IMG/VR virus record: IMGVR_UViG_3300045988_126190
Span: 5,268 to 69,267 of that record
Reading direction: 5' to 3' (one strand)
Length of the DNA stretch: 64,000 nucleotides
DNA from: a virus
The notes beneath the pieces were generated by a model. That model searched no databases. It was not told where the DNA came from and saw only the letters and a list, made by a program, of their open reading frames with translations. Position numbers and translations under genes: made by a program. Position 1 is the first letter of the stretch. The number at the start of each line of letters is the position of its first letter. Positions 948-56,804 of this stretch are shown here, one piece after another.

Positions 948-1946
948 CTATCGCAGTTTTGCTACCATGTCGTCGCAGTAGCGGGAAATGTCGCACGGGT
1001 TGATGATCTGATATTTCTCGACGACCTTCTTGAAGTAGTCGTCAATCAGTTTCTTATCAATCGTGGCCGCGCTGCGGTCGTTTGGAAGCAAATTGCCTCG
1101 CGTTTCAATCCACGGGCGTTCGTTATGCGTAATTCGGCTCAGAACGCCGCCCGAATACATCCCGAATATATCTGCAACCGCGTTCATAAGGACGATTTCA
1201 CGCGTAGTAAACTCCGAAAAATCTTCGGCTTCTTCCATCGTCGGCATAGAAATCGGGTTCCATCCGCAGTCGCTGTACATCCGGTATATGTCGGGATAAA
1301 CAGGTCCATACGCCCACGCTTGGCAGTCGTCAGTGAAAAGGTCGGTACGGTACAATGCGCGGAAGAACGCCTGCGCAAAATACAGCAGTTTCTGGAGCAC
1401 CATAGGGGTAACTTCCTCGGCTCTGTGCAGCATATACCTTGCAACCAGCGCAATCTTGTCGCGACCGTACAGCACGGAAATCTTGTTTACCGCCGCCCTG
1501 CATTTTGCGTAGGCAACGGACGTGATACGGTCCTTGTTTTCCTCAAGGTACTTCCCCATCACGTCATGCGAGGACAGCACCTCCTTCAAGAGGTCAGAAT
1601 GCGCCTTTGACGGAAGCTGACCGCCGACGTAGCGGTTGATGGTCACATCGCCAAAACCCAGCAGTTTCGCAAGTGGGCCAGCGCCGATGTTGTATTTTTG
1701 GAGAATCTGTTCAATTTGCGCGACAGTGATCAGGTTGGCGGCTTTGCGGTATGCTTCATGTGCCGCAATAGCGTTTTCGTCGTTTACTTCAGCAACATAT
1801 GTTTCCTCGCCGCAAACAGTGCAGTAAGCAGTTCGTTCGACATAGCTAAATGTAATTCCGCGAACGGTCTGTTCGATTTTCCGCGACTTTACTTCATATT
1901 CTGTTTCAGCCCCGCAGTTGACACAAAAAGTATTCATATCGTTCAT
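948..1946 (-). CDS. antitoxin: MqsA-like zinc-ribbon/HTH fused to a Panacea (DUF4065) domain
   Basis: N-terminal CxxC...CxxC plus HTH. C-terminal LQKLLYFAQ...AWAYGPVYPDIY motif. ATG at 1946 has an AAGGGAG RBS and abuts the toxin stop. Confidence 0.75.
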   Translation of the reverse strand: MNDMNTFCVNCGAETEYEVKSRKIEQTVRGITFSYVERTAYCTVCGEETYVAEVNDENAIAAHEAYRKAANLITVAQIEQILQKYNIGAGPLAKLLGFGDVTINRYVGGQLPSKAHSDLLKEVLSSHDVMGKYLEENKDRITSVAYAKCRAAVNKISVLYGRDKIALVARYMLHRAEEVTPMVLQKLLYFAQAFFRALYRTDLFTDDCQAWAYGPVYPDIYRMYSDCGWNPISMPTMEEAEDFSEFTTREIVLMNAVADIFGMYSGGVLSRITHNERPWIETRGNLLPNDRSAATIDKKLIDDYFKKVVEKYQIINPCDISRYCDDMVAKLR

Positions 1947-1976
1947 AGAAGTTGCTCCCTTCACTTCACTTGGCAA

Positions 1977-2372
1977 TTATTGGTCATATTTCCCTTTTTC
2001 GTGAAATGAAATTACCATAACTATATCATACGCAGTACGCGTCTCGATATATAGTTTCAAGTACAGTTTTACTAATTCAGGTTCGCCAAAGTATAAAAGC
2101 TCGGCATCCTTGAAAAACTTGTAGACCTCGGCAGATATATCATATCGCGGGTTATCATTTGGAGAAATCTCGACGCAATCCTCTGCCGAAAGCATTTTCA
2201 AAATATCGCACTGTTCTTTGTGCGAAAGACGATACTTCTCTTGCAGTTCTTTATTTTTCCATCTTGGAATGACCTTGATGTCGCCGGTTGCCAGCAGCGG
2301 CTTCATCCTCTTAATGAATTCTTGCGCTTTTTTGTAATCGTCTGGCGAAAGTTCGGTACGGATAGGAATCAC
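1977..2372 (-). CDS. MqsR-like toxin
   Basis: C-terminal LYLKLYIE...DIVMVISFHEK resembles MqsR VYLKITVIHDVLIVSFKEK. Toxin-first gene order as in mqsRA. Confidence 0.6.
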   Translation of the reverse strand: MIPIRTELSPDDYKKAQEFIKRMKPLLATGDIKVIPRWKNKELQEKYRLSHKEQCDILKMLSAEDCVEISPNDNPRYDISAEVYKFFKDAELLYFGEPELVKLYLKLYIETRTAYDIVMVISFHEKGKYDQ

Positions 2373-2394
2373 CTCGGCTTCTCTTTCTGGCTAT

Positions 2395-2433
2395 AGTATA
2401 CGCTTGTGATAAGAAAAAGTCAATATCTTATCA
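2395..2433 (-). promoter_or_regulatory. TA promoter with palindromic operator
   Basis: Minus-strand TTGACT-17-TATACT. The -35 box is bracketed by the inverted repeat TGATAAGA/TCTTATCA (2407-2433). Confidence 0.5.
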
Positions 2434-2483
2434 TAAAATTATGCAGATGATAATTTTTGCTCAAATTTGATGTTATAGGGAAA

Positions 2484-2524
2484 ACGAGCGGAATCCCAAT
2501 TACGGGGCTCCGCTCGTTTTGTTT
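2484..2524. terminator. hairpin terminator/insulator
   Basis: ACGAGCGGA/TCCGCTCGT stem flanked by an A-run and a T-run. Confidence 0.5.
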
Positions 2525-2584
2525 TACTGGCTACAACGATTCTATGATTGCGCGCCGTGACGAAAAAATTTTTTGAGAATGGGG

Positions 2585-2613
2585 TTGACATATGCCTAGG
2601 CGTATGTTATATT
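2585..2613 (+). promoter_or_regulatory. promoter of RHH cassette A
   Basis: TTGACA-17-TATATT with the palindrome GCCTAGGC in the spacer. Confidence 0.55.
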
Positions 2614-2645
2614 TTGTCTAGGCGAAAGTGAAGTGAGGTGAGAGT

Positions 2646-2834
2646 ATGCCGCCGAAAACAGGCCGTCCTATCGTTGGGACAGAGCCAAAAAACAAGCAAA
2701 TCGCACTCAGGGCAACCGAAACAACCGTCAGGAAATTTCAAGAATGTTCTGATGCCACGGGAAAAACCAAGACCGAATTGCTTGAAGAAATGGTGGATTC
2801 CCTGTACAAAGAGGTAACGGCTAAGAAAAAATAG
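2646..2834 (+). CDS. ribbon-helix-helix (Arc/CopG-like) regulator
   Basis: 62 aa with N-terminal GRP motif shared with the RHH genes at 3383 and 42509. GAGGTGAG RBS. Confidence 0.6.
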   Translation: MPPKTGRPIVGTEPKNKQIALRATETTVRKFQECSDATGKTKTELLEEMVDSLYKEVTAKKK

Positions 2835-2899
2835 ATGCAACCCGTCCACGACCAAATGACCGGATTGCATCTACCCAAACGACGGGGAAGCCCCATCTG
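2825..2899 (-). ncRNA. putative sar-like antisense RNA of cassette A
   Basis: Predicted from the antisense promoter at 2906-2934 and hairpin 2833-2872, which has a T-run only on the minus strand. Confidence 0.4.
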
Positions 2900-2905
2900 A
2901 AATCT

Positions 2906-2934
2906 ATTATACTCAGATAGGGCTTCCTTGTCAA
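2906..2934 (-). promoter_or_regulatory. antisense consensus promoter between RHH and ant
   Basis: Minus-strand TTGACA-17-TATAAT. Confidence 0.6.
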
Positions 2935-2958
2935 ACACTGTTTTGAAAGGGAGCTATT

Positions 2959-3378
2959 ATGAATAACGAAATCCAGATTTTCAATTACAACGACCATGAA
3001 GTCAGAACCGTTCAGAAAGATGGCGAACCGTGGTTTGTCTTAAAAGACGTTTGCGGAATCCTTTCCATTGGGAATGTAGCTGATGTTTACGCTCGCCTTG
3101 ACACCGATGAAAAGGGGGTCGGCCAAATCGACACCCTTGGCGGACGGCAAAACATGAGCATTATCAACGAATCCGGACTCTACAACGTCATTCTCCGTTC
3201 CGACAAGCCAGAAGCGAAGCCCTTTCGCAAGTGGGTCACGTCCGAAGTCCTTCTATCTATGGTTGAAATGCACAATTCTGGTGCTGTGATTTTGTACATT
3301 ATGCCGCAAAATATTTTCTTGACATTTTTGCGTTCCGGAAATATAATTGAATTATCGGAACACAGAAATGCGAGGTGA
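2959..3378 (+). pseudogene. truncated Bro-N antirepressor
   Basis: Bro-N motifs are intact up to KWVTSEVL, then the frame runs into the promoter of the next cassette. Lacks the C-terminal half present in the 42800 paralog. Confidence 0.65.
3319..3347 (+). promoter_or_regulatory. promoter of RHH cassette B
   Basis: TTGACA-17-TATAAT with the palindrome TTCCGGAA (3333-3340) in the spacer. Confidence 0.55.
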
Positions 3379-3382
3379 AATT

Positions 3383-3556
3383 ATGGCTCCGAAGGCTGGG
3401 AGACCGAAGTCGGAGAATCCGAAGGATGTTGATGTGAAGGTAAGATTTGACAAGGAGCTGAACGCAAAGCTACTGCAATACTGTCAAAAACACGACATCA
3501 CGAGAACAGAAGCAATCCGGCGCGGTGTTCATCTGCTTCTCTCCCAAGAAAAATAG
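3383..3556 (+). CDS. ribbon-helix-helix (Arc-like) regulator
   Basis: MAPKAGRP...VRFDKE...EAIRRGV is homologous to the 42509 product. GAGGTG RBS. Confidence 0.7.
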   Translation: MAPKAGRPKSENPKDVDVKVRFDKELNAKLLQYCQKHDITRTEAIRRGVHLLLSQEK

Positions 3557-3559
3557 AAT

Positions 3560-3630
3560 AAGACAATCGGCCTGCCGTAGGAAGCTAAAACCGATTGCCT
3601 TATTTCAACACAACTCCTGAAGGAATTGGT
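3560..3630 (-). ncRNA. putative sar-like antisense RNA of cassette B
   Basis: Antisense promoter at 3637-3665 plus a bidirectional hairpin (ACAATCGG/CCGATTG) with T-rich flanks. Confidence 0.4.
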
Positions 3631-3636
3631 AAATCT

Positions 3637-3665
3637 ATTCTATCATTCCTCTGGGGAAAAATCAA
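3637..3665 (-). promoter_or_regulatory. antisense promoter overlapping the ant RBS
   Basis: Minus-strand TTGATT-17-TAGAAT. Confidence 0.5.
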
Positions 3666-3674
3666 GGAGGAATT

Positions 3675-4430
3675 ATGAATAATCAGATTCAAGTTTTTAA
3701 TAATCCTGAGTTCGGCACCGTCCGTACTATTTGCGAGGACGACAAGGTCCTTTTCTGTGGCAGTGACGTTGCGAAAGCGCTTGGGTATCAGAATCCCAGC
3801 CGCGATGTCAACCGGCACTGTAAGGCAATTATAGAGAGATGTACTACCGATTCGGTAGGTCGTCAGCAATCTATGCTTTTCATCCCCGAAAGCGACGTTT
3901 ACCGTCTTGTGTTCGGGTCGAAGTTGCCTACCGCCGAAAAGTTTACCGACTGGGTGACGGAGGAAGTTCTGCCCTCCATCCGGAAGCACGGGGCGTACAT
4001 GACGCAGGAGAAGCTGCAAGAGGTGCTGTGCAATCCTGATGCGCTGTTCCAGATCGTTTCTGCGCTGAAGGAGGAATCCGACAAGCGGAAGGCCCTCGAA
4101 ATCCAAAACTCTGCGCTTGCCGTGGATTTGGCGATCGCGCAGCCGAAGGCAGACTATTTTGATGACTGCATGGCACGCGGCGGGCTGATGAATTTCCGCG
4201 ACACGGCAAAGCTGCTCGGTATGCGGCAGAAGGAATTTATTGACAACCTCCTGCGGGACAGTTACCTTTATCGGGATAAGCGCGGCCGGCTGCTTCCCTA
4301 TCAAAAGCGGAACAACGGCTACCTTGAGATTAAGGAAGCGTTCAACAATTCGTCCGACTGGAACGGGGTGCAGACGCTTGTTACTCCGAAGGGGCGCGAG
4401 TTCTTTCGCTCTCTCTATCCCAGCGTTTGA
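3675..4430 (+). CDS. antirepressor (Bro-N + KilAC/ANT-like C-terminal domain)
   Basis: IQVFNN...FGTVRT, WVTEEVLPSIRKHGAY. AAGGAGG RBS. Confidence 0.85.
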   Translation: MNNQIQVFNNPEFGTVRTICEDDKVLFCGSDVAKALGYQNPSRDVNRHCKAIIERCTTDSVGRQQSMLFIPESDVYRLVFGSKLPTAEKFTDWVTEEVLPSIRKHGAYMTQEKLQEVLCNPDALFQIVSALKEESDKRKALEIQNSALAVDLAIAQPKADYFDDCMARGGLMNFRDTAKLLGMRQKEFIDNLLRDSYLYRDKRGRLLPYQKRNNGYLEIKEAFNNSSDWNGVQTLVTPKGREFFRSLYPSV

Positions 4431-4443
4431 GGGGGTGTTCGGC

Positions 4444-4620
4444 ATGTTTGAGGGCTACACCGAAAAACAGATCGTCGAGATGATTCGGGCGGCTTTGAAA
4501 TCGCCGGAGCGTCGCGCGGAGCTTATGCGCTTGTTGGATTCCCTAGGGCTTCTCCCACAGGAGGTGCCTGACAAATTGACACTCCCCACGGCTAAAGCAG
4601 GGGGATTCTCGGTTCGCTGA
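4444..4620 (+). CDS. small conserved cassette protein, 3' end replaced by IS sequence
   Basis: MFEGYTEKQIVEMIRAALKSPERRAELMRLLDSLGLLP is homologous to the 43568 and 25217 products. It diverges right after LGLLP, where the IS end begins. Confidence 0.55.
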   Translation: MFEGYTEKQIVEMIRAALKSPERRAELMRLLDSLGLLPQEVPDKLTLPTAKAGGFSVR

Positions 4621-4760
4621 CCGTAGCCTTCACCATGAGAGGTCTTACATGGTCTCCCCGAGCGTATCGGTTCGGGCGTGTCCCGCCCTACCATATATTC
4701 TATCTACGCCAGCAGGCGCAGACCTTCGTTGAGGATGTTCTTCGCGGCGTTGATGTCCCG
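4570..4760 (-). ncRNA. putative TnpB omega (re)RNA
   Basis: Position overlaps the tnpB 3' end and extends to the right end, as in characterised TnpB elements. Not folded in detail. Confidence 0.4.
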
Positions 4761-5822
4761 GCCGTGGACTGTACCGCAAACCGGGCAAAACCACTCCCGC
4801 ACAGAAAGGTCTTTCGTTCCGGGCCACTGAGCACCACATACAGAGCAAAGCTGGCTGGACGGAAAGAAGCGGTCTATCGTGACCACCTGTTTTCCATACC
4901 ACTTTGACTTGTATTCCAACTGCCGCCGGAACTCACCCCACGATGCATCAGAGATGGACTTGGCCAGCCTGTGGTTCTTGACCATGTTCTTGGGCGCCAA
5001 GTCCTCAATGCAGATCAGATCGTACTGGCGCATAAGGTCAGTGGACAACTTGTGGAGCATATCCTGTCGCTGGTTGGCGACGTGCTCATGCAGTCTTGCC
5101 AACTGAAGCCTTGCTTTCTCCCGGCGGCTGCTCCCCTTTGTTTTTCGGGAGAGTTGCCGTTGGAGTTTTGCAAGTTTCTTCTGGCTCTTGGATAGATACT
5201 TATGGTTCGGATACTCCACACCATCGGAGGTGATTGCAAATGCTTTCAGCCCCATGTCGATGCCGACCACCGCCCCTGTAGATGGCAGCGGCTCCATATC
5301 AACGTCTGTACAGCACAGGGCTACGAAGTATTTTCCGCTTGGGGTCTGGCTGACGGTTGCGGACAGAACACGCCCCTCTACAGGCTTGCTGATCCGGCAT
5401 TTTACCTTTCCCAGTTTGGGGAGCTGTACAGAGCCTTCCAATACTTTGATATTTGCGCCAACGCACTTGCTCTTATAGCTTTGTCGATGGTTTCGCTTGC
5501 TCTTGAACTTTGGGTATCCGGGTTTCCCGCCTTTTTTGACCCGCCGAAAGAAGTTCTGATAGGCTGTATCCAAATCCCGCAGAGAGGATTGCAGGGCGGT
5601 TGCATCAACTTCCCGCAGCCAGATGGTTTCCTCCTGTTTCTTCAGAGACGTCAGGTCTTTGTCTTGCGTGAATCGTGTGGGAGATTTTCCTGTTTCCCTG
5701 TATGCCTCTATTCGCTGTGCAAGATAGTGATTCCAAACAAAACGACAGCAGCCAAATGTCCGGTGTATCTGTTGCGCTTGTGCGATATTGGGATAGATGC
5801 GGAATTTGTAGCTATATTCCAT
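4704..5822 (-). CDS. tnpB: TnpB RNA-guided nuclease
   Basis: 372 aa with RuvC motifs GIDMG, IEDL, RDINAA and zinc finger CSVCG...CPVCG. Confidence 0.9.
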
Positions 5823-5831
5823 TTCGGAACC

Positions 5832-6242
5832 TCACACATTCTTCTGGCCTTCTATGTACTGCTTGATGACTAACAATGGCGCACCGCCAACAGTAGATAC
5901 AAAATACGAGTTAGTCCACAGCGATGGGAGCCGCGACTGAAGCCAGCTAAATTCTTGTCTCAGAATCCGAGAAGTACGCCCTTTTATTTGTTTTACGGCT
6001 TTGTGTATCCCGAATTGCGGGTCTACTTCCATAAGCAAATGCACATGATCTGGCATAATTTCCATCTCTATGACATCGATGTGGAGTTCATGACAAATTT
6101 CATCTATGAGTTCCTTCAAGCGGGCATTGACACCATCGACCAAGACCTTACGGCGGTATTTTGGACACCAGACCACATGGTACTTGCAAGAGTACACCAC
6201 GTTGTTGTTGTTCTTATATTTCATGGAATTATTATACCACAT
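5832..6242 (-). CDS. tnpA: IS200/IS605 Y1 (HUH) transposase
   Basis: YHVVWCPKYRR, DHVHLL and YFVSTVG motifs. The start may be the internal Met at 6224. Confidence 0.9.
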   Translation of the reverse strand: MWYNNSMKYKNNNNVVYSCKYHVVWCPKYRRKVLVDGVNARLKELIDEICHELHIDVIEMEIMPDHVHLLMEVDPQFGIHKAVKQIKGRTSRILRQEFSWLQSRLPSLWTNSYFVSTVGGAPLLVIKQYIEGQKNV

Positions 6243-6357
6243 TAAGGCATCTAATGCAAGACCTACTTTTTACGGGGAAATAAAGTGTGGCTTATATCCC
6301 CATGCCTAAAGGCAGGGGCTTTACGCCACGATTGGTAAATACCTGATGCTTTCCCTA

Positions 6358-7582: not shown

Positions 7583-8296
7583 TCAGACGAGTTTTCGGAT
7601 GGCATCAACAGCCTTTCGGGTGTAGCGGAAGGTCTGGACCTCCTTGTTGCTGTAGGGGCTTTTATCAAAGAACCACTTGCCGTATTCGGCGGTTTTGAGT
7701 CCGTTCTGGTTGGCGATTTTTCCGACGCGGTTTGCGGTGATACCGAGTGCGGCGGCAATTTCGGCGGCGGAATAGTAGCGATCGATCTTGCATTCCGGCA
7801 GCGGGATGACCTCCTTGCCTCCGGATAGAACGGAGCTGGCGTAGCTGCTGCACACCTGCTTATATTCCGGTGTTGCGAGGTTGCCGATCTCAAGCCACAG
7901 GGCGGCAACATTGGCGCGGCTGTTGTTCAGGTCAATCTCAAGCCGCTGCTTCTGCAAGGGGTCGGCTGTGTAGGAGCCGGTTTTCCGAATGGACGGAAGA
8001 ACCTCGGACGTGACCCAGCGTTTGAATTTCTTCGCAGTGGGCAGTTTGGAGCCGATAATGAGGGCGTAGAGGCCGGATTCGTTGATGATGGTTTGATTCG
8101 GATTGCCTTTTCCGTCGCGAATCGCGACGGTATTCCGGTCATCGTCATCTACGTGCTTAGCGATGGCATCTCTGGGGTTGCTGTAGCCCAGAATGTCCGC
8201 TACATCCTTTCCGACGAACCACGGTTCGCCGTTGATTGTGGTGGTTCGGACTTGGCCGAACTCGTCGTTCTTAAAGATTTGGATTTCTTTGCTCAT
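7583..8296 (-). CDS. Bro-N domain protein with C-terminal DNA-binding-like region
   Basis: IQIFKNDEFGQVRT, PWFVGKDV, RWVTSEVLPSIRK. Confidence 0.8.
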   Translation of the reverse strand: MSKEIQIFKNDEFGQVRTTTINGEPWFVGKDVADILGYSNPRDAIAKHVDDDDRNTVAIRDGKGNPNQTIINESGLYALIIGSKLPTAKKFKRWVTSEVLPSIRKTGSYTADPLQKQRLEIDLNNSRANVAALWLEIGNLATPEYKQVCSSYASSVLSGGKEVIPLPECKIDRYYSAAEIAAALGITANRVGKIANQNGLKTAEYGKWFFDKSPYSNKEVQTFRYTRKAVDAIRKLV

Positions 8297-12100: not shown

Positions 12101-12474
12101 TATGCTCCCTCCTTCGGCGCTTCCGGCAGCGGCATCCAATAAACAATTTCGTCGCCCCAAGCGTCCCAAAAGTCCGTTGGGGCAAGCCAGTCTATTCCGT
12201 TCCAAATCGCTACCATAAAGAGCTTTCGCCTCGTATACACAAGCATAGCTTCGCTTTTTCTTGTATTTTGGTGCACTTCTGGCAAGCGCTCCTCCACCGG
12301 AATCCACCTCGGCACCTTCGCTTCCAGCTCCGCAATTCGTGCCGCCTGCTGCTCGATCAGGTCGGCGGCATCAAAGATCATTGTGTCGCAGTCCAATCTC
12401 TTGCAATATGGGCAATCTCCGCAGGACCGTCTTCCGCACGCCCGCAGTGCCTTAACAATCTCATCTTTTGTCAT
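12100..12474 (-). CDS. DUF551-like protein
   Basis: PRWIPVEERLP...YWMPLPEAP. The N-terminus is near-identical to the 33799 product. Confidence 0.6.
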   Translation of the reverse strand: MTKDEIVKALRACGRRSCGDCPYCKRLDCDTMIFDAADLIEQQAARIAELEAKVPRWIPVEERLPEVHQNTRKSEAMLVYTRRKLFMVAIWNGIDWLAPTDFWDAWGDEIVYWMPLPEAPKEGA

Positions 12475-13181
12475 GTCGCTTCCTCCTCATACGCCTCTCT
12501 CAGTTTCCGAATCACGCTGCCGCCGTAGCTGTTTTCTGTGAGCTTGATAAACTCCTCCACCGTCAGCAGCTCGTCATCCGTGAGTTTGTATCCGTGGCGC
12601 TTGGCGAACTCCGACCGCCCCATATCGCAGGAGCCGGTCAGCCTGTGATGCCAGCCGTAGTAATCTGCCGAGGGATATTGCTTTCCCCACTCGTGCGCCT
12701 TGACGAACTCGGCAATTCTCTCCTCCTCCGGCATATCCTCGAACAGTTTGTCCCGCAGCGCATCCATCGCCGCGCGGAGCGTTTTCCCGTGGGCAAAAAG
12801 GCTGCCCTGCTTGACGATGTAGCAATCCTCTGTCGAGAGGTCGTCGCAAAGAATTCGCCCCTTGGCAGCGTTCCCGTGTACATGGTCAATGAGCGTTGGA
12901 ACGTCGTCAATTTGATATACCTTTTGGCCGCAAAAGGACACAACCCCCTTGTCGTAGCCGTAGCCGGAGCCGTAGCCGGGGCCGTAGCCGGGGCCGCAAC
13001 CGGAGCCGTAGCCGGAGCCGTAGCCGTCGCCGTAGCCGGAACCGTCATCGCCGCCGTAGCCGGAGCCGCCGCCGGAGCCTAATCCGTCGCCGTAGCTGGA
13101 GCCGCCGCCGGAGCCGTCGCCGCGGCCGATGCTGTCTACAGCCTCAGCGAACCGCTCCGCCGCCGTTTTCAGCGCTTCCAT
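12471..13181 (-). CDS. protein with Gly/Tyr/Ser-rich low-complexity N-terminal region
   Basis: About 60 aa of GSGYG/GPGYG repeats followed by a globular C-terminal domain. Confidence 0.65.
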   Translation of the reverse strand: MEALKTAAERFAEAVDSIGRGDGSGGGSSYGDGLGSGGGSGYGGDDGSGYGDGYGSGYGSGCGPGYGPGYGSGYGYDKGVVSFCGQKVYQIDDVPTLIDHVHGNAAKGRILCDDLSTEDCYIVKQGSLFAHGKTLRAAMDALRDKLFEDMPEEERIAEFVKAHEWGKQYPSADYYGWHHRLTGSCDMGRSEFAKRHGYKLTDDELLTVEEFIKLTENSYGGSVIRKLREAYEEEAT

Positions 13182-21469: not shown

Positions 21470-21609
21470 TTCATCAACACCCCTAATAGCGCACCGAACA
21501 GCATTGCGAAACAGATGCCGACGGACGCAATGTTTAACCAGAGCAGCAGCTGCGTCTTGCGAGACAGCTCGTCAATCTTGTCCGGCTCGGTTTGATTGTG
21601 CCGCCTCAT
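21466..21609 (-). CDS. small membrane protein
   Basis: ATGA overlap with the upstream gene. One transmembrane segment. Confidence 0.4.
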   Translation of the reverse strand: MRRHNQTEPDKIDELSRKTQLLLWLNIASVGICFAMLFGALLGVLMK

Positions 21610-22736
21610 TGCGCTACTCCGTCCTGTTTGCCGAGAAAGCGGTTGATGAAGTAGCACTGGCCTTTCCCGGTGACGACCGTCGTCTTTGTGATGACGTTGC
21701 AGCCATTGGAATTGAGGTGGCAGCTCTCCTTTACCTCGAACAAGCCCATTTCCATAGCTCTCTGCGTAGGCATATTCCGGTTGTCACCGCGCTTGACAAG
21801 GAAGCCGTTCTGCCGGAGCCATTCAAACAAGCGGTTCTGACCGATGTTGATTCCGTTCTGCTTCAGCAGCTTTGCCAGAGCGCCGATGAGGATGGTCGTT
21901 TTGCTGGCCGATACGGCATTGGAAAAGAGGACGTGCGGCTTTTGCTCCTCGACGGTGGCCTCCAGCGCCTTGCGCTTGTCCTGCTCGGCTTTCAGCTCGG
22001 TCAAAAGCCGGATGCCGAAGTCCGGGGTCAGCACCATCTTTTCGAGCGTTTCGGGCGTCATATACGCGCCGTGCTTGCGAATAGAAGGGATAACCTCGTC
22101 GGCAATGAACGCCTGAAATTTTTCTGCCGCCTCGTTTTTCGCCTTCATCGCCAGCCGGTAAAACACATTTTCTGGGATGTAGCCGTCGCGCCCACAAGTG
22201 GGCACGCCCATTTCGCTCAAATAACCTTCGACGCGCGTCCAGCGAACAACCTCGTTGCCACTTGTGGCAACGGTTGTGAACCCAAGTCCTCTGGCGACAT
22301 TTTCCAGTTTGAGATATGCTGTCCCGTCCTTCTCGTAACAAGCCACGCCGCCGATGATAGTAATTGGGGTTTCCATGACGCATCGTGCGGTTTGCTGCGC
22401 AATATCAGTAGCCCCGTCTTTTTCATGCTTGCGGATGGAGGGTAAGACCTCGGACGTGACCCACCGCTTGAATTTCTTGGCTGTCGGGAGTTTGGAACTG
22501 AGGACGAGAGAATAGAGACCGGATTCATTGATAAGAGCTATAGCCGTCCCGTTGACGGTGAACGATTCGTTCACCGTCCGATCATCCTCGTCGATGTGAT
22601 CGCGAATCGCCTTCTGCGGATTAGAATATCCGAGAATGACAGCAACGTCTTTGCCGACGAACCACGGCTCATTGTTGATTTCTACGGTTCGGATTTCACC
22701 GAACTCAGGATTGTTAAATACTTGAATATCGTTCAT
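21606..22736 (-). CDS. antirepressor (Bro-N + KilAC/ANT-like domains)
   Basis: IQVFNNPEFGEIRT, RWVTSEVLPSIRKHE, and a second ...IPSIRKHGAYMTPE block. Confidence 0.85.
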   Translation of the reverse strand: MNDIQVFNNPEFGEIRTVEINNEPWFVGKDVAVILGYSNPQKAIRDHIDEDDRTVNESFTVNGTAIALINESGLYSLVLSSKLPTAKKFKRWVTSEVLPSIRKHEKDGATDIAQQTARCVMETPITIIGGVACYEKDGTAYLKLENVARGLGFTTVATSGNEVVRWTRVEGYLSEMGVPTCGRDGYIPENVFYRLAMKAKNEAAEKFQAFIADEVIPSIRKHGAYMTPETLEKMVLTPDFGIRLLTELKAEQDKRKALEATVEEQKPHVLFSNAVSASKTTILIGALAKLLKQNGINIGQNRLFEWLRQNGFLVKRGDNRNMPTQRAMEMGLFEVKESCHLNSNGCNVITKTTVVTGKGQCYFINRFLGKQDGVAQ

Positions 22737-24315: not shown

Positions 24316-24525
24316 TTATGTATTCGTATCTTCTGCGGTTCGCTTTTGCAGAATCGCGTCAAGCGCGGCCTCCATGCGCTTTTGAATTCCTTCTGGCTTG
24401 CGCTTTCCGCTGAGAATCATGGAAATATAAGACTTTGTAACTCCCATTTCGCAAGCCAGTTCAGTAAATGTGATGCGAGCGTTGTGCATCTTCCCAACGA
24501 GACGTCCAGTCCATTTTTCCGGCAC
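24316..24525 (-). CDS. small HTH regulator
   Basis: GTG start with an AAGGAGGGTG RBS. ACEMGVTKSYISMILSGKRKP. Confidence 0.6.
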   Translation of the reverse strand: MPEKWTGRLVGKMHNARITFTELACEMGVTKSYISMILSGKRKPEGIQKRMEAALDAILQKRTAEDTNT

Positions 24526-24823
24526 TGTTTCACCCTCCTTCCCGTTATCAAATGAAATAGGCAGCCGACTGTATATGCCAAATATGAAAAAACTATAAAT
24601 TTTCTCGCCGCGGCCGCTTTTGGGGTTGCAAAAGTTAACAGTCTGTGTTACCATGTTGTTGCCATCAACGCAATAACGTCGGCTCGGGACTTGCATCACG
24701 GGCCTTGCTTGCTGTTTACTCTTTCAACCGCAATTTGATTATATAGCTATATTAGTTAGAAATCAAGTGTTTTTGTTAATTTTTCTAACTTTTTACGTTT
24801 AGCACAAATAGGAGGTGTTCAAT

Positions 24824-25144
24824 TTGGACAATTTCTACAAAAGATATTGTGAGCTCTGCGCAAAAGCGGGGAAATCTGTGTCCGGAGTGGCCGCAGCCGT
24901 GGGTCTGTCCAATGCCGCGGCAAATGGGTGGAAAAAAGGGAAAATTCCAAACGACACCACTTTAACGAAATTATCGGAGTATTTAGGCGTGACGGTCGAA
25001 TATCTCAAAACAGGCGAAGAAAAAGCGCCCACCCAAACGGGTGAGCGCAGCGACGACGAGTTGACTATGCAGATTCTTGAGGCGTTGAAAAATGCGGACA
25101 GGGATCAAAGGGAGGCAATCCTAACTCTGTTAACAAGGAAATAA
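24824..25144 (+). CDS. XRE-family repressor-like protein (CI-like position)
   Basis: AAAVGLSNAAANGWKKGKIP. TTG at 24824 lies 8 nt after GGAGG (the track starts at GTG 24815). Confidence 0.7.
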   Translation: MDNFYKRYCELCAKAGKSVSGVAAAVGLSNAAANGWKKGKIPNDTTLTKLSEYLGVTVEYLKTGEEKAPTQTGERSDDELTMQILEALKNADRDQREAILTLLTRK

Positions 25145-25217
25145 GCGCGGCTCGGCGCTCCGGGGATGCAAGGGCTTTACGAATCAGCTCGGTCAGTTCT
25201 TCTTCTGTACAGTCCAT
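25065..25217 (-). pseudogene. orphan homolog of the cassette small protein, antisense to the repressor 3' end
   Basis: Own translation: MDCTEEELTELIRKALASPERRAALISLLTELGLPP... GGAAAGGAG RBS. Homology ends after LGLPP. Confidence 0.4.
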
Positions 25218-36223: not shown

Positions 36224-36777
36224 TGGAAAACAAAATGACGACAGATCGCGCGATTGAACTTCTGCGGTGCAGGGGCGTGAATTTTACGCTGGACGAATAC
36301 TGCGAGGCGGTGGGCATGGCGGTAGCGGCGCTGAAACAGAGCGCAGGGCGCGACGTGCAGCACGAGACGGATGTTTTTAAGGATGCCATTAAAGAATTCG
36401 GAGAGACGGCACAGGTTACGATGGTGTTCGAGGAAATGGCGGAGCTGCAAAAGGAGCTCTGCAAGTGGATGCGGAACGGAGAATCCGTTGTGGCAACTCA
36501 CCACATTGCCGAAGAAATCGCAGACGTGGAAATCATGCTCGACCAGATGAAACTAATTTTCGACTGCGCGGGATTGTCTCAAGGTTACCGCAGGGCGAAA
36601 ACGGCGCGGCTCGCCGGACGCATCGAAAAAATAAAGAAGAATCGGGCGGATGAAGCAGAAGAAAAGAATGAAAGCCTTCGACAGACACAGGAAACCAACG
36701 GATGTCCGGCAGACAAGACGCTGACTAAGTCGGCGCTTGGACGGGGCTTTTGCAGGGAGACGGAAATAACTCTCTGA
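36223..36777 (+). CDS. MazG-like nucleotide pyrophosphohydrolase
   Basis: EEMAELQKE ... AEEIADVEIM metal-binding motifs. Confidence 0.7.
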   Translation: MENKMTTDRAIELLRCRGVNFTLDEYCEAVGMAVAALKQSAGRDVQHETDVFKDAIKEFGETAQVTMVFEEMAELQKELCKWMRNGESVVATHHIAEEIADVEIMLDQMKLIFDCAGLSQGYRRAKTARLAGRIEKIKKNRADEAEEKNESLRQTQETNGCPADKTLTKSALGRGFCRETEITL

Positions 36778-42262: not shown

Positions 42263-42444
42263 TTGATCGTCCCCTGCCGCCGGGGTCTCACAAATAGGCG
42301 GCTTGCAAAAATCTTCTAAGGGGTGTCCATTTCGCGCGCCCCTTGCACACTGAACAACGTTATTCTTGCGATTACTCCTACAAATTCGTCACCCTGCACA
42401 AATCTAGCTCCTGAATTTCGTACATTCTGCTGTTTCAATTATCC

Positions 42445-42472
42445 TTGACTTTTGGCGGACATAAGTTATAAT
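42445..42472 (+). promoter_or_regulatory. promoter of RHH cassette C
   Basis: TTGACT-16-TATAAT with the inverted repeat CATAAGT/ACTTATG flanking the -10 box. Confidence 0.55.
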
Positions 42473-42508
42473 AGACTTATGGCAGACAAAAGTTGGAGGT
42501 GAGGTACA

Positions 42509-42679
42509 TTGTCGCCAAGAACCGGCAGACCAACAGAAAACCCGAAGCAAGAGCGCATTACCGTCCGATTGGACAAGGAATCCGCTGAAATCCTGCACCT
42601 GTACTGCGAGAAAAAGAACGTAGACAGAGCAGAGGCGATTCGCCGAGGGGTTAAGAAGTTGGCAGACGAAATAAAATAG
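42509..42679 (+). CDS. ribbon-helix-helix (Arc-like) regulator (56 aa, not in track)
   Basis: TTG start after GGAGGTGAGG. Own translation: SPRTGRPTENPK...VRLDKE...EAIRRGVKKL. Confidence 0.6.
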   Translation: MSPRTGRPTENPKQERITVRLDKESAEILHLYCEKKNVDRAEAIRRGVKKLADEIK

Positions 42680-42740
42680 AGTGTTGGCTGCCTCTCACAA
42701 CAAACCAACACCCTATCAGACAGGACAGGGAAACCTATCC
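42672..42740 (-). ncRNA. putative sar-like antisense RNA of cassette C
   Basis: Antisense promoter at 42747-42775 plus hairpin GTGTTGG/CCAACAC with a T-run on the minus strand. Confidence 0.4.
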
Positions 42741-42746
42741 GAAATC

Positions 42747-42775
42747 ATTATACATCGGAGCGGCTTCCTTGTCAA
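42747..42775 (-). promoter_or_regulatory. antisense consensus promoter
   Basis: Minus-strand TTGACA-17-TATAAT. Confidence 0.6.
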
Positions 42776-42799
42776 ACATTGTTTTGAAAAGGAGCTATT

Positions 42800-43552
42800 A
42801 TGAATAACGAGATTCAGATTTTCAGCAATGAAGAATTCGGAGAAATCCGCACTTTGGCTATCAACGATGAGCCGTGGCTCGTCGGAAAGGATGTAGCCGA
42901 AATCCTTGGATATGCAAACCCTAACGAAGCAATATCGGACCATGTAGATGACGAGGACAAACTCAATAGCAAAACGCTATCGAGTTTTTCTGCAAATCTT
43001 GGACAGCGCGGTGGCTGGCTCATTAACGAAAGCGGGTTATACTCGCTTATCATGAGTTCCAAGCTTCCGGCGGCAAAGAAGTTCAAACGCTGGGTCACAT
43101 CCGAAGTTCTCCCCTCTATCCGCAAGAACGGCGGGTATATCGCGGGTCAGGAAAGCATGACACCGGCGGAGCTGATGGCTTCGGCGCTGCTGATGGCGCA
43201 GAAAACGCTTGCAGAGCGCGAGGCGAGAATTGCCGACCTGACGGTACAGAATCAAATCATGCAGCCGAAAGCGGAATACTTCGATGAGCTGTGCGACAGA
43301 GAAACCTTGACCGGCATTTACGAGACGGCGAAGGAGCTGGGCGTAGCGCCGAGGAAGTTCACAGCGGATTTGGTCAAGCACAGATACCTGTACCGTGGGA
43401 AAAAGGGACAGCTCCTGCCATGCGAGAGCAAGAACGACGGGCTGTTTGTATTAAAAGAAACCTTCAACAACCAAACCAAATGGAGCGGCACACAGACGCT
43501 CATTACCGTAAAAGGGCGCGAACTGTTCCGCATGATGCGCCTCGGCGCTTGA
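42800..43552 (+). CDS. antirepressor (Bro-N + KilAC/ANT-like)
   Basis: MNNEIQIFSNEEFGEIRT, RWVTSEVLPSIRKNGGY. The leader is near-identical to that of 2959. Confidence 0.85.
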   Translation: MNNEIQIFSNEEFGEIRTLAINDEPWLVGKDVAEILGYANPNEAISDHVDDEDKLNSKTLSSFSANLGQRGGWLINESGLYSLIMSSKLPAAKKFKRWVTSEVLPSIRKNGGYIAGQESMTPAELMASALLMAQKTLAEREARIADLTVQNQIMQPKAEYFDELCDRETLTGIYETAKELGVAPRKFTADLVKHRYLYRGKKGQLLPCESKNDGLFVLKETFNNQTKWSGTQTLITVKGRELFRMMRLGA

Positions 43553-43567
43553 TTGGAGGCGTGCGGT

Positions 43568-43693
43568 ATGTTTGAGGGCTATTCGTTAGAGGAAATCACC
43601 GATATGATTCGGCACACGCTGAAAGACCCGGAACGGCGAGAAAGGCTGCTCGGCCTTTTGGAAGAGCTGGGGCTTTTGCCGAGGAATTCATAA
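43568..43693 (+). CDS. small conserved cassette protein (41 aa)
   Basis: MFEGYSLEEITDMIRHTLKDPERRERLLGLLEELGLLPRNS. Confidence 0.55.
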   Translation: MFEGYSLEEITDMIRHTLKDPERRERLLGLLEELGLLPRNS

Positions 43694-43709
43694 ACTACAT
43701 AGTGCAATG

Positions 43710-43792
43710 CAGCCGCGAATGGGCGGCTGTGAAGAGCAAAGAGGCTCATTGACACAGGAGACTGTGTTAATGGGTCTCTTTTTTGTTGTTTT
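43710..43792 (+). terminator. hairpin + GAGCAAAGAGGCTC + long terminator (copy 1)
   Basis: CAGCCGC/GCGGCTG hairpin, the 14-mer at 43734-43747, AGAGGCTCATT/AATGGGTCTCT stem, then a T-run. Confidence 0.6.
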
Positions 43793-47744: not shown

Positions 47745-47812
47745 GCCGCTCTGGGATGGTCTCCTTTCGGCAAGTACAGAAAGGCACGACGGTTCGACTC
47801 CGTCGAGCGGCA
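47745..47812 (+). ncRNA. mini tRNA-like element 2 (68 nt)
   Basis: Acceptor GCCGCUC/GAGCGGC. Perfect T arm GACGG-UUCGACU-CCGUC. Stem CUUUC/GAAAG with a 10-nt loop. Mini D arm. Confidence 0.5.
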
Positions 47813-47855
47813 CTTAAAAAACGAATTTTCACCATAGTTGAGGAGGTAAAAACCT

Positions 47856-56700: not shown

Positions 56701-56722
56701 CGGAGCATTTCGCCAAGCGCTG

Positions 56723-56804
56723 CGGCCGCGAAGGGGCGGCCGTTGAGAGCAAAGAGGCTCATTGACACAGGAAACTGTGCCGATGGGTCTCTTTTCGTTG
56801 TTTT
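56723..56804 (+). terminator. hairpin + GAGCAAAGAGGCTC + terminator (copy 2)
   Basis: CGGCCGC/GCGGCCG hairpin. 14-mer at 56747-56760. Same long stem as copy 1. Confidence 0.6.

Follow-up and report, generated by a model that had tools for sequence, protein, structure and literature searches.

In the immI region of phage P22 (arc-sar-ant), a strong promoter is repressed by Arc, a small ribbon-helix-helix (RHH) protein whose gene is the first that it drives; the antirepressor gene ant lies second on the same transcript, and sar, an antisense RNA of 68/69 nucleotides (nt), arises from the spacer between the two genes. Units of this type, also described as "ant morons", are expressed independently in or adjoining the late genes, and in P22-like phages turnover is high and degraded ant genes are found in relatives (PMC2629481; PMC12197685). 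In copG-rnaII-repB of plasmid pMV158, the gene of an RHH repressor is co-transcribed with the gene under control; RNAII, a short antisense RNA from the intergenic region with a 5' tail, a terminator hairpin and a U-tail, inhibits translation and is complementary to a stretch of mRNA that directly precedes the translation signals without covering them (PMC4485353). At the protein level, the AriS-type ANT/KilAC regulators, including phi11 Gp07, combine an exchangeable N-domain with a C-terminal KilAC domain (PMC9043618; PMC5944126). The Bro-N+KilAC protein Lin2418 and AriS (Listeria) inhibit the SOS response through KilAC, and the N-domain of AriS-like regulators alternates between AntA/B, Bro-N and pRha (PMC9043618). 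The present analysis concerns two tandem cassettes of this general kind, cassettes 1 and 2 (promoters P1 and P2), at positions 2585-4620 of a 64,000-nt stretch of viral DNA (IMG/VR record IMGVR_UViG_3300045988_126190, positions 5,268-69,267). This stretch is called the window, and all coordinates refer to it. It is antirepressor modules that settle whether a prophage remains silent or is roused by an incoming phage, and such switches are almost unstudied in gut Clostridia. Each cassette is probably a self-limiting expression unit, and the tandem was probably built by insertion of the head of one cassette into a resident one.

By analogy, the layout of the cassettes resembles that of P22 arc-sar-ant and, closer still, that of pMV158 copG-rnaII-repB; the cassettes are a variant of the immI and ant-moron theme, not a new kind of system. 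A preliminary description of the locus as two tandem immI-like cassettes, the first truncated by the second, was borne out in this respect. With immI the cassettes share a strong promoter having its operator in and around the core, a small RHH gene in first place whose product would repress that promoter (the likeness here is one of layout), an antirepressor-class gene in second place, and an antisense RNA of ca. 70 nt from the spacer between them, predicted here and conserved in 78-87 of 88 modules. A third cassette in the window (cassette 3, promoter P3) lies between portal and head genes, in the manner of an ant moron, and cassette turnover and degraded ant genes were met among the relatives as well. 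In contrast to immI, no divergent RHH gene for a second repressor of the Mnt type precedes P1, P2 or P3; what precedes P1 is the promoter that serves a toxin-antitoxin-like operon. The predicted antisense RNAs do not cover the ant ribosome-binding site and fall far under the Rfam threshold for sar; the RHH proteins bear a conserved arm, GRP..NPK, at the N-terminus and are not significantly similar to Arc in sequence; two copies of a word flanking the -10 element form the operator; and the cargo is a Bro-N+KilAC protein followed by a small protein termed MFEGY, in a phage of a Gram-positive anaerobe. With pMV158 the cassettes share an antisense target upstream of the translation signals, and CopG is among the best structural matches of the first RHH protein. 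That system differs in serving plasmid copy-number control through a Rep gene and not a phage regulatory gene, in the size of RNAII (48 nt and one hairpin, compared with 71-83 nt and two hairpins predicted here) and in having no counterpart of the Shine-Dalgarno (SD) mimic, anti-SD and SD arrangement proposed below. The AriS-type regulators resemble the cargo in domain architecture, and their N-domain repertoire equals the set of cargos found behind RHH modules; no RHH/antisense head has been described for them, the activity found in tests was SOS inhibition or filamentation and not inactivation of a repressor, and the relatedness is at the level of domains only.

Layout of the tandem and the truncation of Bro1

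The plus-strand order is P1, RHH1, a 124-nt spacer, Bro1, P2, RHH2, a 118-nt spacer, Ant2 and the MFEGY open reading frame (ORF). P1 occupies 2585-2613 (TTGACA-17-TATATT; -35 at 2585-2590, -10 at 2608-2613) and extends to 2625 with its operator words. It is followed by RHH1 (2646-2834), a protein of 62 amino acids (aa) with an N-terminal GRP..PK arm that is the presumed P1 autorepressor, and by the Bro1 ORF (2959-3378, 139 aa). P2 (TTGACA-17-TATAAT) lies inside the end of that ORF at 3319-3347 (-35 at 3319-3324, -10 at 3342-3347; operator arms to 3363). Downstream are RHH2 (3383-3556, 57 aa), of the same RHH family as RHH1, Ant2 (3675-4430, 251 aa) and MFEGY2 (4444-4620, of which 4444-4575 is native).

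A Bro-N/KilAC antirepressor and an MFEGY protein of ca. 40 aa had been ascribed to each cassette, which holds for cassette 2 only. Ant2 contains both Bro-N (aa 16-100; PF02498, E 8.6e-24) and ANT/KilAC (aa 152-247; PF03374, E 8.2e-24) and is followed by MFEGY2; Bro1 has Bro-N alone, and cassette 1 has no MFEGY gene. The Bro-N domain of Bro1 is complete (aa 14-98, E 4.4e-25, model positions 1-95 of 96), its Bro-N part being codons 1-101 at 2959-3260, and no KilAC or other Pfam domain was found past it. The cassette had been called "decapitated"; what was lost is in fact the tail end (KilAC and MFEGY), and the head was kept.

The resemblance of Bro1 to other Bro-N proteins stops after the motif KWVTSEVL (L98 is encoded at 3250-3252). 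At the DNA level, homology to the full-length genes of related loci L005 and L006 runs out at 3251-3260, Bro-N genes from phages of Bordetella, Gordonia, Mycobacterium and Streptococcus match only up to 3251, and homology to cassette 2 as it occurs in L007, L009, L011, L013 and L015 starts at 3260. The sequence is thus of Bro type up to ...TCTAT (3260) and of cassette 2 type from GGTTGAA on. Because the two parents share at most 1-2 nt at this join (3260/3261), it is illegitimate, with no crossover within Bro-N homology. The preliminary description gave the protein endpoint correctly and had the second promoter begin at that point; it is the conserved leader of cassette 2 (3260-3318) that begins there, since the P2 -35 element is 59 nt further downstream.

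Codons 102-139 of Bro1 (3261-3378) are translated leader and promoter DNA, because the DNA of this tail matches the non-coding leader and promoter of cassette 2 elsewhere. The stop codon (TGA, 3376-3378) falls within the RHH2 SD, 5 nt before the RHH2 ATG. Among 3,786 homologues, the last 41 residues were covered at high identity solely by the protein's own cluster of 5 near-identical contigs, and none was a full-length protein with the same C-terminus; that the first antirepressor is truncated was accordingly upheld. Other close homologues are 240-244 aa long, include KilAC and are 84-92% identical over the first ca. 100 aa only. The next-best of these (P0002 and P0003, 244 aa) are 92% identical over residues 1-101 and continue as PSIRKNGGY... 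into KilAC.

Cassette 3 (42395-43792, plus strand) was found by tblastn and is intact. It comprises the leader motif described below, P3 (42445-42472), RHH3 (42509-42679), Ant3 (42800-43552), MFEGY3 (43568-43693) and a terminator (43708-43792). Ant3 is 41.5% identical to Ant2 over aa 1-247 and matches PHROG 130 at E 5e-75; the spacer upstream of Bro1 together with the first Bro1 codons is 85.6% identical in DNA to cassette 3. The five Bro-N genes that had been counted in the window were confirmed by tblastn (starting at 2959, 3675 and 42800, and at 7583-8296 and 21606-22736 on the minus strand).

Predicted control elements

The assignment of an Arc-like RHH protein to each cassette stood at the level of the fold. 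An AlphaFold model of RHH1 (predicted local distance difference test score 77.5 overall and 86-90 in the core) has an extended segment at residues 18-24 and helices at 25-38 and 42-61, i.e. the beta-strand, helix, helix topology (ca. 45 residues) of the Arc/MetJ/CopG superfamily. When the model was compared to the PDB, the first 14 matches were all RHH proteins, as were most of the top 50; they included TacA1 (template-modeling (TM) scores 0.70/0.80), CopG, Arc (TMt 0.88, root-mean-square deviation 0.9 Å over 40 columns), AmrZ and NikA. All RHH proteins matched PHROG 876, "transcriptional repressor" (E 1e-10 to 1e-16; 3e-10 for RHH1 and 6e-16 for RHH2), and RHH2 matched PHROG 582, "Arc-like repressor", at E 0.006. 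RHH2 is 28% identical to RHH1 and 47-50% identical to RHH3. These proteins are expected to bind the operator words described below and to repress their own promoters.

Promoters were scanned as consensus matches only. Against the sigma-70 consensus, P1 scored 11/12 with a TG extension and P2 scored 12/12; positions 2300-4800 held 11 promoter-like sites, compared to 2.2 +/- 1.2 in shuffles. GRP-arm RHH genes were gathered from IMG/VR with a degenerate DNA pattern, and the features around them were then measured; 87 of 88 had a plus-strand promoter upstream. In the preliminary description, each near-consensus promoter carried its own perfect palindrome in the spacer. Both promoters and both palindromes are there (GCCTAGGC at 2594-2601 in P1 and TTCCGGAA at 3333-3340 in P2); the palindromes are not the conserved operator. 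Spacer palindromes of at least 8 bp occurred in 14% of 80 promoters and in 5.6% of shuffles, those of at least 6 bp were as frequent as in shuffles, and the palindrome was therefore rejected as a general operator. TTCCGGAA is missing from the P2 promoters of L007, L009 and L011 despite an identical RHH2, with TTCCACAA, TTCCGCAA or TTCCATAA there instead.

The conserved design is a cassette-specific word with one copy in the spacer and one at most 22 nt past the -10 element. A shared word of at least 7 nt was present in these two places in 62% of the 80 promoters and in 2% of shuffles, and the copies were inverted in 48 promoters and direct in 24. They lie ca. 21-24 bp apart on either side of the -10 element, which gives indirect support to their being half-sites for the two-stranded sheet of an RHH dimer. 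The P1 words are GCCTAGGCG (2594-2602, in the spacer) and GTCTAGGCG (2616-2624, right after the -10 element), the inverted P2 arms that flank the -10 element are GCGTTCCG (3330-3337) and CGGAACAC (3356-3363), and the P3 words are TGGCGGACA and TGGCAGACA. Because the three sets differ, the window holds three operator specificities. If confirmed, the design would furnish compact, mutually orthogonal parts for pulsed expression, with three operator/RHH pairs in one genome, and cross-immunity among gut phages would become predictable from operator words. Upstream of P2 and P3, at an equal distance of ca. 50 nt from the -35 element, is the motif TGCACAA-N17-(T/C)GTACA (3269-3298 and 42395-42424), which was found nowhere else in the 64 kb (0 expected by chance). 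This is a conserved element of the cassette leader and possibly the site for a second regulator.

On the minus strand, the best promoter of the region (12/12) lies in the RHH1-Bro1 spacer (-35 at 2934..2929, -10 at 2911..2906). The antisense RNA gene predicted from it (2826-2934) would start near 2899 and end, after ca. 74 nt, with a terminator hairpin (2873..2832) and a T-run (2831..2826). The corresponding gene of cassette 2 (3550-3665, minus strand) has a weaker, TG-extended promoter (TTGATT-17-TAGAAT, 3665..3637, in the RHH2-Ant2 spacer), a predicted start near 3630 and a terminator hairpin at 3605..3556 with its T-run, for an RNA of ca. 81 nt. That of cassette 3 has a predicted promoter at 42775..42747 and an RNA at ca. 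42740..42670. In cassettes 1 and 2, the hairpin after the antisense promoter has a T-run on the minus strand only, supplied by the A-rich end of the RHH gene. The three predicted RNAs (2899 to 2826, 3630 to 3550 and 42740 to 42670) are 71-83 nt in length and consist of a 5' hairpin and a terminator, with fold z-scores of -5.4 to -6.0. No Rfam family reached its threshold anywhere in the window, and the antisense RNAs are unannotated there; the sar model (RF00262) scored 18.4 bits at 2887-2926 on the minus strand (E 2.2), compared with a gathering threshold of 43.

The convergent layout of promoter, hairpin and T-run was present in all of the sixteen spacers first compared, the sequences of which are unrelated. 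Of 33 distinct RHH-to-Bro-N spacers, 32 had a minus-strand promoter, where dinucleotide shuffles would give 6.35. In any context, 78 of the 88 RHH genes had one within 160 nt, its predicted start lying 63 nt past the RHH stop codon (median; interquartile range (IQR) 59-69). A minus-strand T-run (at least 6 T in 8) occurred at the RHH stop codon in 87 of the 88 and followed a hairpin with a median of -16 kcal/mol and a z-score of -2.5. The plus strand served for comparison: a promoter was seen in the same region in 30 of 88 cases and a comparable T-run in 25. As a separate matter, the loop of hairpin 1, CCGTAGGAAG, was considered as a general kissing or anti-SD loop and rejected, being present in 5 of 81 spacers only, all from loci that encode RHH2; cassette C of L017 has a close variant, CCGTAGGAAA.

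The predicted antisense starts lie 45-60 nt upstream of the ant ATG, and the ant SD is outside the antisense RNA. What connects the two, according to predicted folding, is the structure of the ant leader. In cassette 1, the leader switch (2881-2954) includes a long hairpin (hairpin 2), the 5' arm of which (2881-2900) is an SD mimic lying under the antisense RNA. Within its 3' arm (2913-2932), the anti-SD GCTTCCTT (2922-2929) can pair instead with the SD, AAGGGAGC (2947-2954). The same arrangement, with a CU-rich stretch as the 3' arm and an SD mimic within the antisense target as the 5' arm, is found in cassette 3. In the ant2 leader, an SD-sequestering hairpin (3645-3673) pairs the anti-SD ATTCCTC (3645-3651) with GGAGGAAT (3666-3673). 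The full-length leader of cassette 1 is predicted to leave the SD open; when the antisense target was blocked, the predicted SD accessibility fell in cassette 1 (0.51 to 0.02) as well as in cassette 3 (0.63 to 0.13). Among 61 compact modules with any cargo, SD accessibility was under that of at least 90% of shuffles in 43 and under that of 95% in 33, and blocking the antisense target lowered it by more than 0.1 in 28 and raised it in 2. The conservation over ca. 90 loci of a predicted antisense gene combined with an SD-sequestering leader is the most useful new result of this analysis. It offers a testable design (RHH autorepression, convergent small RNA, SD-sequestering leader) in ca. 90 independent phage loci and ties Firmicutes phages to two classical circuits, P22 immI and pMV158 cop.

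Two further relatives of RHH1 deserve mention. One, 78% identical, heads a pRha/ORF6C gene. Another, 72% identical, is located in a bacterial chromosome (L221-L230; e.g. L221, 1501-2076) between a gene for a response regulator with a Spo0A domain and one for an rRNA adenine dimethylase (RrnaAD family); its promoter, antisense and SD-hairpin layout is alike, and its cargo is an 88-aa protein with no assigned function. Because of this chromosomal copy, the RHH module is not confined to phages.

Alleles, origin of the tandem and rival explanations

The site between the toxin-antitoxin-like pair and the integrase gene is a high-turnover ant-moron site. Two relatives have other alleles at it, both free of the insertion sequence (IS) that interrupts the window. 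L016 reads P1-RHH1-terminator, then P_B-RHH(55 aa)-Ant(254 aa)-MFEGY(47 aa)-int. L017 reads P1-RHH1-terminator, P_B-RHH(55 aa)-27 Bro1-like codons, then P_C-RHH(62 aa)-Ant(253 aa)-MFEGY(47 aa)-int. From these and the window, it follows that an older cassette was cut at three points (after RHH1, at Bro codon 27 and at Bro codon 101), and at every one of them the leader and promoter of the next head come directly after. The locus is a natural allele series of one, two and three stacked heads with three truncation points, and it shows how such modules are swapped.

Cassette 2 has a distribution of its own. An identical RHH2 protein was present in 21 contigs. In L007, L009, L011 and L013 (backbone 91-96% identical), the cassette is found just upstream of the terminase genes (window equivalent 36687-36743), and in L012 and L014 it follows a gene for a 231-aa protein (window equivalent 56676). 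The P1-RHH1..Ant2..MFEGY2 tandem is known in 5 near-identical contigs only. With different stacks in the same-backbone L016 and L017 and cassette 2 elsewhere in L007, L009, L011, L012 and L014, the tandem is not vertically conserved as a unit, in keeping with the expectation that the cassettes had been exchanged. At 36722-36760, the window retains the last ca. 30 nt of an MFEGY-type gene where the relatives carry the whole RHH2-Ant-MFEGY cassette, and at 56721-56804 it has a solo copy (87% identical) of the cassette 3 terminator (43708-43792), at the position of the cassette in L012 and L014. Both are apparent scars of cassettes that were lost.

The exchange had been attributed to recombination at conserved Bro-N sequence, which applies to the right side of the insert and not to the non-homologous left join. 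By sliding-window identity, 3320-3620 (P2, RHH2 and the antisense region) is nearest to L012 (96-100%), 3680-3980 (Bro-N of Ant2) to L007 (80-95%) and 3980-4575 (linker, KilAC and MFEGY) to the same-site alleles L017, L016 and L006 (95-100%); Ant2 is a mosaic gene. The partner switches at the ant start (SD plus MNNxIQ, near 3680) and at the box W-V-T-x-E-V-L-P-S-I-R-K (3920-3980), a recurrent breakpoint. Other mosaics were seen: P0004 (from L006) is a hybrid of a Bro1-type N-domain with the C-part of Ant2, and P0102 mixes three sources. The points of exchange are therefore conserved boxes at both ends of the Bro-N domain, with one side of the exchange joined illegitimately, and the right-hand crossover of the founding event was probably in a conserved Bro-N box as well, to judge by these breakpoints. 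The five Bro-N genes of the window had been regarded as ample substrate. They are poor ones, being 65-73% identical with longest identical runs of 10-20 nt; runs of 15-20 nt among the five paralogues occur only at the ant start and the W-V-T-x-E-V-L-P-S-I-R-K box. Other phages are more likely to have been the exchange partners than paralogues in the same genome. The cassette boundaries in L007, L012 and the window showed neither flanking repeats nor target duplications, the marks to be expected of transposons. None of the cultured or deposited phages in INPHARED had the cassette, the matches there being to the conserved 3' segment of Bro-N only.

Of 92 locus-strands, 9 had tandem RHH heads, and stacking is thus a recurrent minority state. 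Six of the 9 come from unrelated IMG/VR phages (L103, L107, L128, L158, L165 and L199); these have two tandem heads with gaps of ca. 120-570 nt and no Bro-N remnant between them, and only L158 has a Bro-N/KilAC gene downstream.

The favored model of the cassette is as follows. A strong sigma-70 promoter, its -10 element flanked by two cassette-specific operator words, would drive the cassette; the small RHH protein with its GRP..NPK arm would bind the words and close the promoter from which it is made, in the manner of Arc at P22 Pant and CopG at pMV158 Pcr. A convergent antisense RNA gene of ca. 70-80 nt would be transcribed from a promoter in the RHH-ant spacer to a terminator over the RHH stop codon. 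In the ant leader, the CU-rich anti-SD would have two alternative partners: translation would be on when it pairs with the SD mimic and off when it pairs with the real SD. Upon entry or derepression, a pulse of the cargo (the Bro-N/KilAC "antirepressor-class" protein and then the 41-47-aa MFEGY protein) would be made before the RHH protein closed the promoter, and the antisense RNA, by pairing with the SD-mimic arm or by collision with sense transcription, would silence residual expression. Transcriptional interference between the convergent promoters may be an alternative or additional antisense route. As for the tandem, a resident P1-RHH1-asRNA1-Ant-MFEGY cassette (asRNA, antisense RNA) would have taken in the head of another (leader-P2-RHH2-asRNA2-Bro-N), with the right-hand crossover in the conserved 3' box of Bro-N or in the KilAC part and the left-hand join made illegitimately at nt 3260. 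P1, RHH1, asRNA1 and a complete, tail-less Bro-N domain would have been left as a stacked "head". On the sequences compared, a one-sided, homology-anchored insertion of a foreign head into a resident antirepressor gene is the simplest history.

Several results weigh against this model or narrow it. The RHH_1 family of Pfam matched RHH1 at E 0.064 (13.7 bits, compared with a cut-off of 20.5) and did not match RHH2, and RHH chains appeared in a PDB profile search at E 0.06-0.4, again below threshold; membership in the RHH superfamily rests on the fold, because the matches to curated families fall below threshold. The antisense RNAs, their start sites and their effect are predictions. The switch fits cassettes 1 and 3 better than cassette 2, because the SD of the latter is sequestered with or without the antisense RNA (0.35 vs. 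0.34). There is no Mnt-like repressor, and the model leaves the silencing of the cargo in a lysogen unexplained. "Antirepressor" stays an annotation here, because the activity found in tested relatives is inhibition of SOS and not inactivation of a repressor. Finally, the order of events (insertion or deletion) is not fixable, because the closest sampled donor is only piecewise 85-100% identical.

A different history, in which two complete tandem cassettes suffered an internal deletion from codon 101 of Ant1 to the leader of cassette 2, would produce just such a non-homologous join as that at 3260/3261, and the apparent scars at 36722-36760 and 56721-56804 point to deletions of other cassettes in this same genome. 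It is considered unlikely: no relative with two complete tandem cassettes was found, and the three alleles share P1-RHH1 on the left and the C-part of Ant2 with MFEGY on the right (95-100%, the level of the backbone) with different middles and three cut points. Because the alleles share both ends and differ in this way between them, repeated head insertion is the simpler account. Duplication in situ, followed by divergence and vertical inheritance as a unit, would explain the gene order and architecture common to both units; it is scarcely credible with RHH1 and RHH2 28% identical, the two Bro-N domains 35% identical, unrelated operators, and a cassette 2 that is 85-100% identical to cassettes elsewhere in other phages while the tandem is confined to 5 near-identical contigs. 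Bro1 could, alternatively, be more than a dead remnant. It could work as a stand-alone Bro-N protein, or the P1-RHH1-asRNA1 head could be kept by selection as a second input to RHH2/Ant2 or as a silencer of incoming P1-type cassettes. The Bro-N domain is complete and the ORF stays open for 38 further codons to a stop within the RHH2 SD; no plus-strand terminator lies between P1 and RHH2; P1 and RHH1 are intact in all three alleles (95-100% aa identity); and tandem heads recur in the 9 locus-strands mentioned above. This use is nonetheless doubtful, for the Bro1 tail is translated promoter and leader DNA without a homologue that has it, 38 open codons in a row could well arise by chance, and a remnant of 0, 27 or 101 codons across the alleles argues against selection on it.

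With regard to function, the minus-strand signals might yield no regulatory RNA, being chance matches, or else the hairpin might be an RNA element of the plus strand or a protein-binding palindrome. The consensus-only scans and the inverted repeat around the minus-strand -10 element, which could be a DNA operator, would allow this; the position-locked conservation (78 promoters and 87 T-runs in 88, starts with an IQR of 59-69 nt, and shuffles expecting just 6.35 in 33) makes it very improbable. For the cargo, it is proposed tentatively that the proteins are AriS-like dual regulators, with KilAC damping the SOS/RecA response of the host and the N-domain tuning phage transcription. The inhibition of SOS by AriS and Lin2418 via KilAC in Listeria (PMC9043618) and the identity of their N-domain set with that of the RHH-module cargo favor this, and the "anti-repressor" label of PHROG 130, 2899 and 463, an annotation rather than a test, goes against it. 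A broader and rather speculative proposal starts from the self-limiting unit itself. The GRP-arm RHH gene, operator pair, antisense RNA and SD mimic/anti-SD/SD leader would constitute a portable "pulse-expression head", undescribed and absent from Rfam, widespread in gut Firmicutes phages and even in bacterial chromosomes, that drives interchangeable cargos (Bro-N, pRha, AntA, ORF6N). Cargo-less stacks (in the window, L016, L017 and the six IMG/VR phages) would then be kept because an orphan RHH protein and antisense RNA silence like-operator cassettes of incoming phages, and a phage would accumulate "anti-antirepressor" immunities. Stacking could be selected, with orphan repressors serving as immunity against like cassettes.

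Cargo proteins, insertion sequence and surroundings

Bro1 and Ant2 belong to PHROG families named "anti-repressor Ant", and proteins of the window match PHROG 130, 2899 and 463 at E 1e-37 to 1e-77. In the IMG/VR modules, the cargo after the RHH head was pRha (8), AntA (6), ORF6N (6), Bro-N (5), ORF6C (4) or a small unassigned protein. Most of the Bro-N/KilAC genes retrieved from IMG/VR had no RHH gene directly upstream; the RHH head is one of several control modes for such genes. An example in the window is the gene at 21606-22736 (minus strand) for a 376-aa protein having two Bro-N-like stretches and a KilAC-type C-terminus (PHROG 130 matched in two stretches, E 3e-107). This antirepressor-class gene of the leftward operon is internally duplicated and lacks an RHH head.

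MFEGY proteins form a tiny family: of 1.84 billion representatives, 9 matched at E<=0.001. Short proteins of 35-53 aa account for six of these; the other three are much longer, at 1,254-3,083 aa, and were matched in part. None of the 9 was a fusion to a helix-turn-helix (HTH) or repressor domain, and no match to MFEGY was found in Pfam or PHROG. A third copy in the window, on the minus strand at 25065-25217, belongs to a putative lysis-lysogeny switch (24316-25217) with divergent Xre-type HTH genes (24316-24699, minus strand, and 24815-25144, plus strand); it is convergent with the latter, which encodes 109 aa, and overlaps its 3' end. The C-terminal tail of this HTH protein is an exchangeable module among its homologues. 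MFEGY was considered as a possible mimic of the C-terminal helix of this protein. Against its last 30 aa, MFEGY gave a weak hhalign match (probability 27% with a single sequence, P 6.5e-4; 11% with fuller profiles), the sole hint of a likeness to part of a repressor, and BLASTP found nothing. MFEGY can be compared with AimX of arbitrium phages, a 29-aa protein that binds a repressor and blocks its oligomerisation (bioRxiv 10.1101/2025.11.23.689978): both are very small proteins of lysis-lysogeny control modules, and they have no sequence relation.

MFEGY2 is 58 aa long in the window and natively 47 aa, because an IS200/IS605-family element (4576-6334, minus strand; tnpB at 4704-5822, tnpA at 5832-6242) took the place of its three terminal codons; the final 14 codons and the stop codon are now supplied by the end of the element, and the native ...PDKVNT* became ...PDKLTLPTAKAGGFSVR*. 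The element encodes both TnpA (Y1_Tnp, E 1.9e-44) and TnpB (OrfB_IS605, Cas12f1-like TNB and HTH_OrfB domains) and was inserted 3' of TTAC, which abuts the tnpA-side end. These properties are those of the IS200/IS605 family, the members of which lack terminal inverted repeats and insert 3' of a short target of this kind. Exact empty sites exist in L016 (8513/8514) and L017 (3846/3847), and the tnpB-side end (4576-4703) should hold the omega-RNA region.

The window holds most of the genome of a temperate siphovirus-type phage of human-gut Clostridia; the best matches of its TerL in GTDB genomes, in metagenome-assembled genomes of Eubacteriales, Acutalibacteraceae and other Clostridia, are just 56-58% identical. 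The tandem is at the right end of the phage genome, flanked by the integrase gene and by the toxin-antitoxin-like pair (948-2372, minus strand), which consists of a 342-aa protein that combines an MqsA-like zinc ribbon with an HTH and a SocA/Panacea domain and, upstream of it, a 131-aa protein with no assigned family. In L001, three additional genes are present between this pair and P1. ARAGORN reported a tRNA-like structure with a two-base, undetermined anticodon at 47745-47813, within the structural gene region, which is probably a false positive. An inverted repeat of ca. 226 nt (12287-12488 vs. 34010-33785, 75% identity) links the leftward early and the rightward regions.

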